Shown here piece by piece: positions 1,457-6,013 of a stretch of 10,711 bases of DNA. The stretch is from NCBI GenBank assembly GCA_004524385.1, contig SDNM01000022.1, positions 1 to 10,711 of the forward strand, written 5' to 3'. Origin of the DNA: Promethearchaeota archaeon. GTDB lineage: Archaea > Asgardarchaeota > Lokiarchaeia > Sigyniarchaeales > SOKP01. The translations under genes were made by a program, and so were the position numbers. Below the pieces are notes generated by a model, which saw nothing but the letters and a program-made list of their open reading frames with translations, was not told the origin of the DNA and did not search any database. Position 1 is the stretch's first letter. The number at the start of each line of letters is the position of its first letter.

Positions 1457-1693
1457 ATGAGTTATTCTTTTAGTCGGACTAAAATGATTGAAAAGATCAA
1501 GTTTGGACTTTTAAGCCCTGACGAGATCCGAAAGATGTCTGCTGCTCGTATAATTACGGCAGATACTTATGATGAAGATGGGTTACCTATTCCATCTGGA
1601 TTAATGGATCAACGATTAGGAACAATAGAACCAGGACAGCGTTGCCAGACATGCGGAAACCTCGTGAGTAATTGTATGGGACATTTCGGGCAC
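1457..1693 (+). CDS. rpoA1: DNA-directed RNA polymerase subunit A' (Rpo1N), exon 1 (79 aa) ending in ...[17 protein letters not shown]
   Basis: [14 protein letters not shown] and the zinc motif CxxCx6CxGHFGH are hallmark N-terminal motifs of the archaeal/eukaryotic largest RNAP subunit. The annotated 83-aa ORF continues CIKQ* into the insert. Confidence 0.9.
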
Positions 1694-1723
1694 TGTATTA
1701 AACAATAAGTTTAATACGTCTAA
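1694..1723 (+). other. Candidate 30-nt bulge-helix-bulge (BHB, relaxed type) intron within the rpoA1 coding sequence
   Basis: The insert is in frame (30 nt) and carries TAA at 1706, 1712 and 1721, between GHFGH and IELARPV. Central helix 1688-1691 gggc pairs with 1718-1721 gtct (2 G-C and 2 G.U). The 3-nt bulges are 1692-1694 and 1722-1724. A perfect 9-bp helix 1695-1703/1709-1717 has the loop aataa. Cutting after the 2nd bulge nucleotide on each side gives exactly 1693|1694 and 1723|1724. Confidence 0.55.
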
Positions 1724-4700
1724 ATAGAACTAGCCCGTCCAGTTATTCATGTAGGCTATGCTAAAAAAGTATTGAAAGTTCTAAGATCAATCTGTCCAGC
1801 ATGTTCAAAACTAATGCTTTCAGAAGAGGAAAAGACACGATTTGGGGACAAACAGACAAAACATCGAAAGATGTTTTTTGAGGGAGATGAAGATTTTACT
1901 AAAATTGTATTCAAAAGGGCAAGGAAAACAAAAATTTGTCCTTACTGTGGGGCAACTAAGAAAAAAATAATAATTGAAAAGCCAACCACGTTCTATGAAG
2001 AAGAGGAGAATAAGGGTTCCCGCAGATTAACACCTATTGAGATTATAGATCGACTTAAAAAAATAAATGATATTGATCTTAGGATATTAGGAATTTCGCC
2101 TGAAAATGCTCGCCTTGAATGGGTCATTTTTATAGTATTACCTATACCTCCTGTATGTGCAAGACCCTCAATTACTTTAGATAGCGGAATTCGATCTGAG
2201 GATGATTTAACCCACAAACTTGTTGATGTAATTCGGATTAATCAACGATTAAGAGAAAATATTGATGCTGGTGCTCCGCACTTGATAGTCGAAGATTTAT
2301 GGGAACTATTGCAATATCATATTACTACATATTTCGATAATCAAGTTTCAGGAATACCGCCGGCTAGACATCGTTCGGGTCGAGCGTTAAGAACCTTGAC
2401 TCAAAGATTGAAAGGTAAAGAAGGAAGATTTAGAAGTAATCTTAGTGGGAAAAGAGTTGATTTTTCAGCAAGAAGCGTTATATCTCCAAATCCTTATATA
2501 AGCATTAATGAAGTTGGTGTACCTCAAGATGTAGCAAAAATTTTAACAATTCCAACTAATGTAAACGATTGGAATATCGAAGAAATGAAGCAATTAATAT
2601 TAAATGGTCCTATTAGACATCCAGGAGCAAATTACATAATTAGGAACGATCGTAGAAGAATTGATCTCCGCTATGTCAAAAATAGAAAATTAATTGCTGA
2701 CATGATTGCTCCAGGATTTACAGTCGAACGACATTTAAATAATGGAGATTTAGTCTTATTCAATCGACAACCATCTCTCCATAGAATGTCAATAATGGCT
2801 CATGAAGTAAAAATAATGGATGGAAGAACTTTTAGGCTAAATTTAACTGTTTGCCTAGAAGGAAATACACCTATCCATACAGATATGGGTAAAATTAATA
2901 TAAAACGTCTTGTAAATAATTATGATAATATTGATCTTTACTCTTGCACTTGGAAAAAAGATTTACCTAATAATATTAATGATATAAACATTATTTCTCA
3001 AGGAATAAAGGAAAGTCAGATAATAAGTTCTGAGTTATCTAAAGATAGAATTGAAGGAAAACGAATTATTACAGAAATGGGAAGATTTATTGAAACAACT
3101 CTTGATCATCCCTTTTATACAGAAAAAGGAAAAATTCCTGCTGATTCTCTTTCGTTAGGAGATCGAGTTGCAGTGTATCCTATTGATCTCCCTGAGATAG
3201 AATATAATTCCGGTGTAACAATATTATCTGCTGAAGATATATTGAATGCTTGCCCTCCTAATACCTATACTAATAAATTATTAGACGAATTAAATAAAGC
3301 AAAATTGTTAAATATACCTCCAATTTCCAAGAAACAAATTATTTTGGCATCTTTAGTTGGACATTTAATGGCAGATGGAACTTTATGGTGGGATGAGAGA
3401 GGAGTTCATTTGACCTTCAGGATCAATTCAATGGAAGATGCTGAAAACATAAGAAATAAATTAAAGTCCGTTGGGATTGAGTCTCCAGAACCAGAAATAA
3501 AAGAATCTCGAGGTGATGAAATATTTACTGTTTCAGGAAAAGTTTTACGGCCTAAAGGAAAAGCCATAATAATTGATATTAGGAAAAAATCATTTGCTAT
3601 AGCTTTTCATGCATTAGGAGTCCCTGTTGGAGATAAAGTCACTCAAGAATTCTCAGTTCCTGAATGGATTCTTAATGGTTCAAAAATGGTAAAAAGAGCT
3701 TTCTTAAGGGCATATTTTGGTGGAGAACTTTCTACACCTCGATTGCATACAAAGTCAGCAAAAATTATTAATCAACCCATTTTTAAAATGTCTAAAATTG
3801 ATGGTCTGACTGCTTTACACTTTTTTAACGATATTAAATACCTTTTAAATGAATTTGGAGCAGATATTTCTTCCTATTCTACTGAACCTGGTAATATTAG
3901 AAAAAAGGATGGATTAAGAACTACTTCTTATGCAGCAAATATCGCATCAAATGAAAAACAACTTTTATCTTTTTATAAGAAAATTGGATGTGAGTTTGCC
4001 AGAGAAAAAGAAATTTATTGTCGTTATGTTTCAGAATATTTAACTCTCAAATTCTTGGCAAGAAATAAAATGCAAGAAGTTAAGTTAAAAGCAATAAAAT
4101 CAAGAGAGAATGGTTTAACATTAGAACAAATTGCGAATAGAATCAATGTAACTCCAACAACTATATCTAGATGGGAGAGAGGAATATATGAACACGCAGG
4201 ATTACCCATTAATTTTCCGACATTTAATGAATGGATTCTTGAAACAACTGAAATGTTAAGTGATGGATTAGTATGGGATAAAATAGCAAAAATTGAAAAC
4301 ATCAAGCTAGATATCGCTTATGATGTGACGATGAATGGTAACTATGATAACTTTATTGCGAATGAATTTTTAACCGGAAATTGCCCTCCCTATAATGCTG
4401 ATTTCGATGGTGATGAAATGAATTTACATGTTCCTCAAAGTGAAGAAGCGCGAACAGAAGCAGAACTACTACTTAAAGTTCAAGAGCATATTTTATCTCC
4501 CCGATTTGGTGGACCTATATTAGGGGGTATCCAAGATTTTATTTCCAGTGTTTTTCAATTCACTAGTAAAGAATCGATATATAATAGAAAAGATACTTTA
4601 AAATTGCTTTATAAAGGAGGAATTTTTGAAAGTAATCCCAATTTCACTTTAGATACTTTAAAACCCCTCACAACAGATCCTGAACCATTATATTCAGGGA

Positions 4701-6013
4701 AACAAATTTTTAGTACTCTTTTTCCAAATGATTTGAATATTCGAGTGAAATCAAAATTTTGTAAGAAATGTGATGTCTGTGAGGAATTAGATTGCCCTTA
4801 TGATGCTTATGTAACAATAAAGAATGGTGAATTGGTTACAGGAACAATTGATGAGAATTCATTTGGGGCTATGCAATCAAATAGTATTCTACAAAGGATC
4901 ATTAAAGATCATGGTAATGCTAGAGGAAGAGAATTTTTAGACAATGCAACTAAAATGCTTCTATATGTCATTCGCAAAAACGGGATGACAATGGGTTTAG
5001 ATGAAGTTTATGTCAAAGGAGAAGCTTTTGAAAAAATACAAGATATTATTAGTCATGCGAATAAAGAATCAAAAAAACTCATTAGAGCTTACTATGAAAA
5101 TGATACAAACATATTGAAAAGAGCTCCTGGACGTTCCATGAGAGAAACTTTAGAATTAAGAATCAGACAAGTCTTAAATCAAGCTCGAAGTCAAGCTAAT
5201 GAAGCTGCAGCTTTTTATATAGGAGATGAGGCTCATTCTGTTATAATGACAAAATCTGGGGCTCGAGGAAATATCCTAAATTTAGGACAAATGTCTGCCG
5301 TAGTTGGACAACAAGCTATAAGAGGTGAAAGAATTAATCGAGGATATACTCAAAGAACATTGCCTCATTTCAAAATGAATGATCTTAGTCCAAAATCCCG
5401 TGGATTTGTCTCATCTTCATATAGGAATGGTTTAAATCCAGAAGAATTTTTCTTTCACGCAATGGGGGGTCGAGAGGGGCTGGTAGACACGGCCGTCCGC
5501 ACGAGCACGTCCGGATATATGCAACGGAGATTAGTTAATGCTCTCCAAGATCTTGTCATCGAAAACGATGGTACTGTCCGCAATTCGGATAAAAATATAA
5601 TTGAATATGAGTTTGGCGATGATAGTATAGACCCAATGCATACTGATCATGGCAATGCAGTTAATTTAGATGTATTATTATTAAAAGCAAAATCGCTTGA
5701 CGTTGACAAAATTCGACAAGAAATCAAGAGCAAACCAAAAAAGAAAGCACCAGCAGAGAAAGCACCAGCAGAAAAAGCACCAACCAAGAAAGCACCAGCA
5801 AAAAAAGCACCAGCAAAAAAAGCACCAGCAAAAAAAGCACCAGCAAAAAAAGCACCAGCAAAAAAAGCACCAGCAAAAAAAGATGTTGCTAAAACTGAGG
5901 ATGATGAAGCCTTACAAGAACAGTTTGAAAAAGAAACTGGAAAAAATGCGATTTGGCGGGGTAAAGAGACTAAAGCATTCAAAGAATGGAAAAAGGAAAA
6001 AATTGGTGACTAG
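1724..6013 (+). CDS. rpoA1: DNA-directed RNA polymerase subunit A' (Rpo1N), exon 2; includes the intein and a C-terminal repeat tail
   Basis: It begins IELARPVIHVGYAKKV (1724-1771) in the same frame as the 1772..6013 ORF. It contains the second zinc motif CPACS...CPYCG, RQPSLHRMS, NADFDGDEMN (catalytic Mg site) and the bridge helix GGREGLVDTAVRTSTSGYMQRRL. TAG stop at 6011-6013. The track's TTG start at 1772 would discard the conserved IELA segment. Confidence 0.9.
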   Translation: MELARPVIHVGYAKKVLKVLRSICPACSKLMLSEEEKTRFGDKQTKHRKMFFEGDEDFTKIVFKRARKTKICPYCGATKKKIIIEKPTTFYEEEENKGSRRLTPIEIIDRLKKINDIDLRILGISPENARLEWVIFIVLPIPPVCARPSITLDSGIRSEDDLTHKLVDVIRINQRLRENIDAGAPHLIVEDLWELLQYHITTYFDNQVSGIPPARHRSGRALRTLTQRLKGKEGRFRSNLSGKRVDFSARSVISPNPYISINEVGVPQDVAKILTIPTNVNDWNIEEMKQLILNGPIRHPGANYIIRNDRRRIDLRYVKNRKLIADMIAPGFTVERHLNNGDLVLFNRQPSLHRMSIMAHEVKIMDGRTFRLNLTVCLEGNTPIHTDMGKINIKRLVNNYDNIDLYSCTWKKDLPNNINDINIISQGIKESQIISSELSKDRIEGKRIITEMGRFIETTLDHPFYTEKGKIPADSLSLGDRVAVYPIDLPEIEYNSGVTILSAEDILNACPPNTYTNKLLDELNKAKLLNIPPISKKQIILASLVGHLMADGTLWWDERGVHLTFRINSMEDAENIRNKLKSVGIESPEPEIKESRGDEIFTVSGKVLRPKGKAIIIDIRKKSFAIAFHALGVPVGDKVTQEFSVPEWILNGSKMVKRAFLRAYFGGELSTPRLHTKSAKIINQPIFKMSKIDGLTALHFFNDIKYLLNEFGADISSYSTEPGNIRKKDGLRTTSYAANIASNEKQLLSFYKKIGCEFAREKEIYCRYVSEYLTLKFLARNKMQEVKLKAIKSRENGLTLEQIANRINVTPTTISRWERGIYEHAGLPINFPTFNEWILETTEMLSDGLVWDKIAKIENIKLDIAYDVTMNGNYDNFIANEFLTGNCPPYNADFDGDEMNLHVPQSEEARTEAELLLKVQEHILSPRFGGPILGGIQDFISSVFQFTSKESIYNRKDTLKLLYKGGIFESNPNFTLDTLKPLTTDPEPLYSGKQIFSTLFPNDLNIRVKSKFCKKCDVCEELDCPYDAYVTIKNGELVTGTIDENSFGAMQSNSILQRIIKDHGNARGREFLDNATKMLLYVIRKNGMTMGLDEVYVKGEAFEKIQDIISHANKESKKLIRAYYENDTNILKRAPGRSMRETLELRIRQVLNQARSQANEAAAFYIGDEAHSVIMTKSGARGNILNLGQMSAVVGQQAIRGERINRGYTQRTLPHFKMNDLSPKSRGFVSSSYRNGLNPEEFFFHAMGGREGLVDTAVRTSTSGYMQRRLVNALQDLVIENDGTVRNSDKNIIEYEFGDDSIDPMHTDHGNAVNLDVLLLKAKSLDVDKIRQEIKSKPKKKAPAEKAPAEKAPTKKAPAKKAPAKKAPAKKAPAKKAPAKKAPAKKDVAKTEDDEALQEQFEKETGKNAIWRGKETKAFKEWKKEKIGD
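2852..4381 (+). mobile_element. Intein (510 aa) with LAGLIDADG homing-endonuclease domain, inserted in RpoA' between RLNLTV and CPPYNADFDGDEMN
   Basis: Extein continuity FRLNLTV|...|CPPYNADFDGDEMNLH. Block A is CLEGNTPIHT (Cys1) and block B is ETTLDHPFYT (TxxH). LAGLIDADG motifs are LVGHLMADGTL and FLRAYFGGELS. Blocks F/G are AYDVTMNGNYDNFIAN-EFLTGN, followed by +1 Cys. An HTH-like segment LTLEQIANRINVTPTTISRWERG lies at about 4115-4183. Confidence 0.9.
5747..5881 (+). repeat. 15-nt tandem repeat x9 (gcaccagcaaaaaaa), last six copies identical; encodes APAEK-APAEK-APTKK-(APAKK)x6
   Basis: Counted directly. Unit starts are 5747, 5762, 5777, 5792, 5807, 5822, 5837, 5852 and 5867. Units 4-9 are identical at the nucleotide level, and the repeat is in frame within rpoA1. 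Confidence 0.95.

Follow-up and report, generated by a model that had tools for sequence, protein, structure and literature searches.

How does an archaeon make its RNA polymerase when the gene for the catalytic subunit is interrupted by stop codons? The question is raised by a stretch of 10,711 nucleotides (nt) from a Promethearchaeota archaeon (contig SDNM01000022.1), called the window below and always meant at its full length, which has a G+C content of 30.7% and carries the archaeal gene order rpoA1, rpoA2, L30e, NusA, S12. A 30-nt insert splits rpoA1, the gene for RNA polymerase subunit A', precisely between GHFGH and IELARP. The explanation we favour, with a probability of roughly 87%, is that positions 1694-1723 are a bulge-helix-bulge (BHB) intron in the rpoA1 messenger RNA (mRNA) of this Asgard archaeon (phylum Promethearchaeota), removed by the transfer RNA (tRNA) splicing endonuclease EndA and the ligase RtcB. 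Most likely, as far as the sequences can tell, the rpoA1 mRNA would have to be spliced before polymerase can be made. The argument starts from four observations, namely the anatomy of the DNA, a seamless protein junction, a conserved and co-varying RNA fold, and a cut rule that recurs at other insertion sites.

The interruption is evident from translation. The 83-amino-acid open reading frame (ORF) at 1457-1708 reads MSYSF...NCMGHFGH, adds CIKQ and stops at TAA, and further TAA codons follow in its frame (stops at 1706, 1712 and 1721). The same frame resumes at 1724 as IELARPVIHVGYAKKV and joins the long ORF that ends at 6013; this second exon is open over 1429 codons and has all Rpb1 domains according to Pfam. 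The Pfam profile RNA_pol_Rpb1_1 aligns through its positions 2-73 with the 83-residue ORF and through positions 74-312 with the frame starting at 1724, from residue 1 onwards. Since profile position 73 ends before the insert and position 74 resumes directly after it, deletion of 1694-1723 is seamless. Sliding the junction by a single base replaces His-Ile with Gln-Ile or His-Leu, and there is no in-frame ATG, GTG or TTG between 1724 and 1771, the earliest candidate being a TTG at 1772. An initial annotation made from the letters of the window had claimed this ORF with its three stops, the open frame from 1724, the restoration of the gene by excision of exactly these 30 nt, the uniqueness of the junction and the lack of a start codon behind it; translation and the profile coordinates bear out each of these claims.

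Could the gene simply be broken, that is, a pseudogene or a gene split into polypeptides of 83 and ~1410 amino acids? The pieces are indeed annotated as separate ORFs in many assemblies. However, rpoA1 is essential, the second exon is intact throughout, the conserved IELARPVIHVGYAKKV segment has no start codon from which it could be made, and a split would interrupt an invariant motif. Further, the insert persists across diverged species with compensatory changes in its RNA, which argues for selection on RNA structure and would be unexpected for a dead insertion. Collectively, these points make a broken gene extremely improbable.

Closer still to negligible is the possibility that the insert is an error of sequencing or assembly, or that an altered genetic code lets it be translated. 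Some fragmented rpoA1 genes in public databases are artefacts: those of loci L096 and L097, called as three to four ORFs, were rejected as intron candidates because they contain single-base indels typical of assembly errors. The insert in the window, by contrast, is identical in assemblies from two independent sequencing runs (SRR7614767 and SRR21285603), one of which differs from the window by two synonymous changes in the exons; this settles the question, left by the initial annotation, of whether the 30 nt are real DNA. Sixteen alleles of the insert also occur in independent assemblies. As for the code, five of the window's seven other ORFs end in an ordinary TAA stop, so that the genetic code is standard; alleles of 31 and 40 nt shift the frame, and the peptides that the inserts would encode are not conserved.

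If the insert is removed from the RNA, the RNA itself should show where. The minimum free energy (MFE) fold of 1670-1745 has an energy of -19.5 kcal/mol (z = -2.78), and 2 of 200 shuffled sequences fold equally well. It contains the elements listed in Table 1: a central helix (H) of 4 base pairs (bp), GGGC/GUCU, as in archaeal BHB introns; a 3-nt bulge directly 3' of it on the 5' side; and then a 9-bp inner helix (h'). Each bulge of a BHB substrate is cut after its second nucleotide. Applied here, this rule predicts a cut at 1693^1694 (a caret marks a cut or junction), which is the junction demanded by the protein, and cuts at 1693^1694 and 1723^1724 give GHFGH-IELARP, while shifts of +1 or -1 fail. 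The 3' side is less regular. Its bulge has 5 nt, next to a 3-bp UUC/GAA outer helix (h), in both the MFE and the RNAalifold folds, and 3 nt only if a C/U mismatch is allowed. The initial annotation had drawn the hairpin, the bulge at 1692-1694 and the GGGC/GUCU helix as found here; its outer helix, 1684-1686 with 1726-1728 after a C/U mismatch, gives way in the MFE fold to UUC 1685-1687 with GAA 1727-1729 and a bulge at 1722-1726. As modelled, the motif fits the relaxed HBh' class and not the strict hBHBh' motif.

Table 1. Parts of the interrupted rpoA1 gene and of the predicted BHB fold, in window coordinates.
Feature	Position	Strand	Basis or remark
rpoA1 exon 1	1457..1693	+	79 codons, MSYSF...NCMGHFGH; translation and Pfam RNA_pol_Rpb1_1 profile positions 2-73
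Outer exon-exon helix h, 5' strand UUC (Phe codon)	1685..1687	+	pairs with GAA 1727-1729
Central helix H, 5' strand GGGC	1688..1691	+	Gly codon and first base of the His codon; pairs with 1718-1721
5' bulge A C^U	1692..1694	+	unpaired in MFE and RNAalifold folds; predicted cut after 1693
Predicted intron, 30 nt (UGUAUUAAACAAUAAGUUUAAUACGUCUAA)	1694..1723	+	three in-frame TAA; junction uninterrupted in 70 of 86 sequences
Inner helix h', 9-bp hairpin	1695..1717	+	1695-1703 with 1709-1717, loop AAUAA 1704-1708; MFE fold
Central helix H, 3' strand GUCU, within the intron	1718..1721	+	MFE fold, geometry scan, pair counts, RNAalifold
3' bulge A A^A (U A)	1722..1726	+	predicted cut after 1723
Outer helix h, 3' strand GAA (Glu codon)	1727..1729	+	MFE fold, pair counts
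rpoA1 exon 2 (IELARPVIHVGY... to stop), intein included	1724..6013	+	Pfam Rpb1 domains 1 (from profile position 74) to 5

How much can such a motif prove? With loose criteria (a 4-bp helix, fixed bulges and an inner helix of at least 4 bp), the BHB geometry matches 864 times on one strand of the AT-rich window, and with hundreds of such matches the motif alone proves nothing. The picture changes for strict geometry at a junction specified beforehand. A 4-bp central helix combined with nine or more inner-helix pairs is found at 2 of 21,318 positions for a length of 30 nt, and at 18 of 2.89 million position/length pairs, so that the chance of finding it at the pre-specified junction is about 1e-4 to 1e-5.

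Stronger evidence comes from relatives. A search with the 83-residue ORF returned many short N-terminal fragments that end just past GHFGH or near DEDGLPI, one of them labelled Promethearchaeota. Loci from 80 species-level genomes were fetched, and these relatives are Asgard archaea of the phylum Promethearchaeota. Presence or absence at the His^Ile junction (site A) was counted over 86 sequences, and a pattern scan of metagenomes added further insert-bearing loci. GHFGH is joined directly to IEL in 70 of the 86; at the identical junction, 16 distinct insert alleles occur in total, twelve of 30 nt, three of 31 nt and one of 40 nt. The insert sequences diverge widely and encode unrelated peptides, whereas the RNA pairs are kept. 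All in-frame inserts (13/13) contain a stop codon, and those of 31 and 40 nt shift the reading frame. Taken together, the frame shifts, the unrelated peptides and the stops exclude read-through, recoding and a function of the insert as protein.

The pairing was assessed on a gap-free alignment of the twelve 30-nt alleles, each extended by 16 nt upstream and 14 nt downstream. The proposed pairs are formed in 96.5% of the cells, against 83.2% in shuffled alignments (0/500 reach 96.5%), and sliding the partners by one to three columns lowers pairing to 29-51%. Every one of the nine pairs of the inner helix has changed on both sides across the alignment. The central helix, made of exon and intron, is paired in 12/12 sequences, and the pair between the Gly wobble base and its intron partner appears as A-U, G-U, G-C or U-G. 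Without any structure supplied, RNAalifold finds the same 19 pairs, 10 of which show compensatory changes. The outer UUY (Phe)/GAR (Glu) helix is likewise paired in 12/12 sequences, which is weak evidence because the Phe and Glu codons fix both sides. In all insert-bearing relatives, the cut rule scores best at shift 0 at site A. The comparison of orthologous loci that the initial annotation had proposed thus yields 70 uninterrupted genes and 16 insert alleles whose helices are maintained by compensatory changes, and it supports the proposed relaxed HBh'-type intron with cuts at 1693^1694 and 1723^1724.

Does the cut rule hold elsewhere? Coded and applied at other insertion sites in the relatives, it does. 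At site B, 4 nt downstream of site A, inserts of 35, 50 or 85 nt occur in L001-3, L080, L081, L084 and L101; the geometry picks ATAG^...^AG, the junction that restores IELA. In L080 and L081, the site-B motif is a near-canonical hBHBh' (H 4/4, h' 5-6/6, h 3-4/4) and conforms to the strict definition. At site C, located at DEDG-L^PIP, inserts of 30-31 nt occur in L004, L048, L064, L086, L091 and L101, and the rule selects GGAC^...GTAA^TYCC, restoring the conserved protein; the 31-nt versions fit less well. Both sites split codons in phase 1, at ATAG^AG and GGAC^TT. All fetched DNA was also scanned, under strict criteria, for BHB-shaped inserts that on excision would join two long open frames. 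Besides the rpoA1 cases, this yielded a single new one, 29 nt long, in rpoA2 of L045 (7400-7428). Excising it restores ...TFHYAGVE^EFSVTQGLPRLIEIVDARR, and at this point 79 other loci have no interruption. Further, the more distant archaeal genome L095 (GCA_053491595.1) has rpoA1 inserts of 29 nt (2693-2721) and 31 nt (3385-3415), with BHB-compatible junctions restoring DEDGYPIE^SGIMD and APQLIVE^DLWELLQYH. No small stop-containing or frame-shifting inserts were seen elsewhere along rpoA1. A relaxed scan (H of at least 3 bp, lengths 18-110) was discarded as too noisy, giving 1118 candidates that were mostly ordinary gene boundaries such as L30e/NusA. Intron-containing tRNA genes, sought in 97 loci as a means of validating the cut rule, were not present in them. 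The insert in the window is therefore one of a set of short, patchily distributed rpoA1/rpoA2 introns and not a peculiarity of a single genome.

An intron may also be excised by machinery other than EndA and RtcB, for instance by another structure-specific endonuclease acting on the hairpin or through another ligation pathway. The identity of the enzyme is deduced from the motif, the 3' site is non-canonical, and the strongest conserved element is merely a hairpin, all of which would suit such a pathway. A hairpin alone, however, would not define the junction with single-nucleotide precision. The 4-bp exon-intron helix is formed in every aligned sequence and covaries with a synonymous exon position, the sizes and positions of the bulges are fixed, and the BHB cut rule hits the correct junction in several unrelated sequence contexts. 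A different endonuclease is thus unnecessary, and we regard it as unlikely.

Short inserts with stops need not be spliced at all if the ribosome can hop over them. Translational bypass elements, such as those of phage T4 gene 60 and the byp elements of Magnusiomyces yeast mitochondria, are inserts of 27-55 nt with a hairpin and stops inside essential genes, which the rpoA1 inserts resemble, and hopping over the 30 nt would tolerate the frame-shifting lengths seen among the alleles. Bypassing, however, acts at the ribosome and requires matching take-off and landing codons. In all 16 alleles, the take-off codon is CAY (His) while UAA, UAG or UAU precedes the codon at which translation would resume, so that the required match fails. 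Nor could hopping between codons produce the phase-1 codon splits of sites B and C, and the intron covaries with exon bases in a BHB arrangement. Programmed bypassing is accordingly very improbable. Known intron classes were also considered and rejected: the conserved ribozyme core of self-splicing group I and group II introns spans hundreds of nt, against 30 nt here (a scan of the window against Rfam at gathering thresholds gave no match), and the required junction, CAC^UGU...UAA^AUA, is not the GU...AG of a spliceosomal-type intron. The only nearby GU...AG pair (1695-1727, 33 nt) creates CAC-UAA.

With an EndA-spliced intron thus preferred, the distribution of the inserts suggests how such introns are removed and inherited. 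In L084, a site-A intron (4238-4267) and a site-B intron (4272-4306) are separated only by ATAG. L101 carries three inserts in its first 81 codons, at site C (677-706), site A (817-846) and site B (851-885); the ATAG between its A and B inserts (847-850) would be a 4-nt micro-exon. The central helix of site B is complete (4/4 pairs) only once the site-A intron has been removed, which predicts an order of splicing. Presence is patchy even between close relatives. L084 has two introns, while L036, 97.7% identical over the next 600 nt, has none, so that gain or loss must have been recent and precise. Similarly, L090 has an intron and L042 (93.7% identical) does not, and the nearest relative of the window, L006 (86.5%), has none. 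Most site-A alleles are alike (TGTnnGAAnCAnTTAGnTTCnnACGTCTAA), a likeness that, on the sequences, could reflect either a shared origin followed by repeated precise loss (the scenario proposed for cbf5) or spread between lineages.

A separate observation concerns L100, a 1-kb metagenome scaffold 99% identical to the N-terminal part of the window gene, which has no insert. Precisely at the intron hotspot (CATATA[GA]ACTTGCC), ~30 nt after the GHFGH codons, 2 nt are missing, which breaks its frame. The scaffold might be an assembly chimera of strains with and without the intron, or might record an imprecise loss.

Rather more tentatively, and with the balance tipping slightly against it, the inserts could be seen as a family of ~30-nt BHB mini-introns undergoing active gain and loss in the core transcription genes of Asgard archaea, at no fewer than three sites in the first 81 codons of rpoA1 and one in rpoA2, such that ordered multi-step mRNA splicing would be routine.

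For the window, the predicted pathway is as follows. In the pre-mRNA, exon GGGC (1688-1691) would pair with intron GUCU (1718-1721) and the 9-bp intron hairpin would close the structure, leaving a bulge of 3 nt on the 5' side and one of 3 to 5 nt on the 3' side. EndA would then cleave at 1693^1694 and 1723^1724, and an RtcB-type ligase would join the exons, probably circularising the 30-nt intron. The predicted spliced junction is GGGCAC^AUAGAACUAGCC, and the mature mRNA would encode ...GHFGH-IELARP..., while unspliced mRNA would yield only the 83-residue fragment. Cleavage, ligation and the identity of the enzymes are steps that we infer from the sequence comparisons. The literature on the enzymes is consistent with them. 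Asgard EndA has been reported as (alpha-beta)2 with an L1 loop (PMC5829648), EndA and RtcB occur in all near-complete archaeal genomes examined, and circular ribosomal RNA transcripts have been obtained from Asgard archaea (PMC12918454), which points to a pathway active in Asgard. Relaxed motifs are likewise used by cbf5 introns (PMC2738675). The initial annotation had linked relaxed motifs to the broad-specificity endonucleases of Crenarchaeota, Nanoarchaeota and ARMAN; the lineage here belongs to none of these, being Asgard (Promethearchaeota).

It should, however, be noted that several features weigh against an EndA-type intron. Where exactly the bulges are cut is taken over from what is established for BHB substrates. 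The 3' splice site is non-canonical, with a bulge of 5 nt, or of 3 nt next to a C/U mismatch, and the outer helix has just 3 bp and is dictated by coding; the cut at 1723^1724 would therefore rely on a ruler measured from the central helix. Two of the pairs in the central helix of the window are G-U. Neither endA nor rtcB is among the genes of the window or of the fetched loci. Finally, one crenarchaeal (alpha-beta)2 enzyme disfavours a 4-nt bulge at the 5' boundary (PMC2724299).

The intron is not the only interruption of the polymerase genes in the window. An intein in rpoA1 (2852-4381; CLEGNTP...EFLTGN), flanked by RLNLTV and CPPYNADFDGDE, sits at the catalytic aspartate motif and contains a helix-turn-helix Pfam match. 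With a predicted intron and an intein, synthesis of this subunit would need one RNA splice plus one protein splice. A second intein, in rpoA2 (6280-7893), has a LAGLIDADG homing-endonuclease domain and lies between GEPGTQM and TLRTFH. The C-terminus of RpoA1 carries a KKAPA-type lysine/alanine/proline tail, encoded at 5740-5882 by 9.5 copies of a 15-nt tandem repeat; its Pfam matches, to histone-H1-like and extensin families, are weak. Upstream of rpoA1, the window has an ORF of 249 amino acids (470-1219) that matches no Pfam family. In the clade of the window, rpoH and rpoB are not found upstream of rpoA1, and L001 and L004 have succinyl-CoA-ligase-type genes in this position; in the more distant L095 and L097, rpoB is upstream of rpoA1.

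How does the rpoA1 intron compare with known systems? The closest is the cbf5 pre-mRNA intron of Crenarchaeota such as Aeropyrum and Sulfolobus (Watanabe 2002, Yoshinari 2006, Yokobori 2009, PMC2738675). Both have a variable interior, a host with a hetero-oligomeric (alpha-beta)2 EndA (taken from the literature for Asgard), and lineage-specific presence and loss, and both are misread by gene callers as frameshifts or split genes. The gene and the phylum differ, in that here it is the RNA polymerase catalytic subunit A' of Asgard archaea (Promethearchaeota) that is interrupted. Further, rpoA1 can be interrupted at several places within 81 codons, relatives have as many as three introns in one gene, the rpoA1 introns are patchy between relatives 94-98% identical, and its splicing is predicted from sequence. 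The BHB introns of archaeal tRNAs at non-canonical positions and in multi-intron tRNAs (Marck and Grosjean 2003; Sugahara 2008; PMC6379350) share the hBHBh'/HBh' motifs, the 4-bp central helix, the 3-nt bulges, lengths of tens of nt, the predicted use of EndA and RtcB, and the occurrence of several introns per gene. The rpoA1 substrate, in contrast, is an mRNA without a tRNA body; its exon half is constrained by codons, and the cut must keep the reading frame.

Haloferax volcanii HVO_1309 (PMC7714728; PMC10485636) is another archaeal mRNA cut by the tRNA-splicing endonuclease, found spliced in RNA sequencing data. It differs in being a different gene in a euryarchaeon with an alpha'2 enzyme and a canonical BHB and, unlike rpoA1, it is not a recurring set of introns in a core gene. 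Among eukaryotes, the HAC1 and XBP1 mRNAs (Ire1 with tRNA ligase or RtcB) share the non-spliceosomal removal of a short insert that changes stops or frame, the combination of an endonuclease with a tRNA-type ligase, and the dependence of the full protein on removal. Their endonuclease, however, is Ire1, the motif is a twin stem-loop, and the role is regulatory, in the stress response.

The initial annotation had considered BHB introns within protein-coding genes of archaea to be essentially limited to crenarchaeal cbf5. Although cbf5 is indeed known, HVO_1309 of Haloferax is also a known EndA-spliced mRNA (PMC10485636). Reviews up to 2025 name only these two archaeal mRNAs as substrates of tRNA endonuclease splicing, and one review expects more. 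In the literature searched, whose coverage leaves out most subscription journals, no earlier account of BHB introns was found for rpoA1 or for Asgard protein-coding genes. The pattern of several sites and several introns in the relatives may go beyond one more case of a known type of EndA-spliced mRNA.

Collectively, splicing by the tRNA endonuclease is now predicted, with strong support from covariation, for the RNA polymerase catalytic subunit of Asgard archaea, which are believed to have given rise to the eukaryotes. There is a practical consequence: rpoA1 is a standard phylogenomic marker, and because of the inserts many Asgard genomes list it as hypothetical proteins or as gene fragments. 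Patchy presence between near-identical relatives and the seemingly ordered removal of adjacent introns offer a tractable case of intron gain and loss. Because the stop-laden intron sits in a gene that is essential and presumably expressed at high levels, production of the transcription machinery would hinge on EndA and RtcB. Ribosomes on nascent transcripts would either have to await splicing or translate in vain, a point of relevance to ideas that tie introns to the separation of transcription from translation. If the wider mini-intron family is real, the closest prokaryotic relatives of eukaryotes would routinely need ordered mRNA splicing to make their RNA polymerase, and they would provide a living system for how protein-coding introns spread without a spliceosome.

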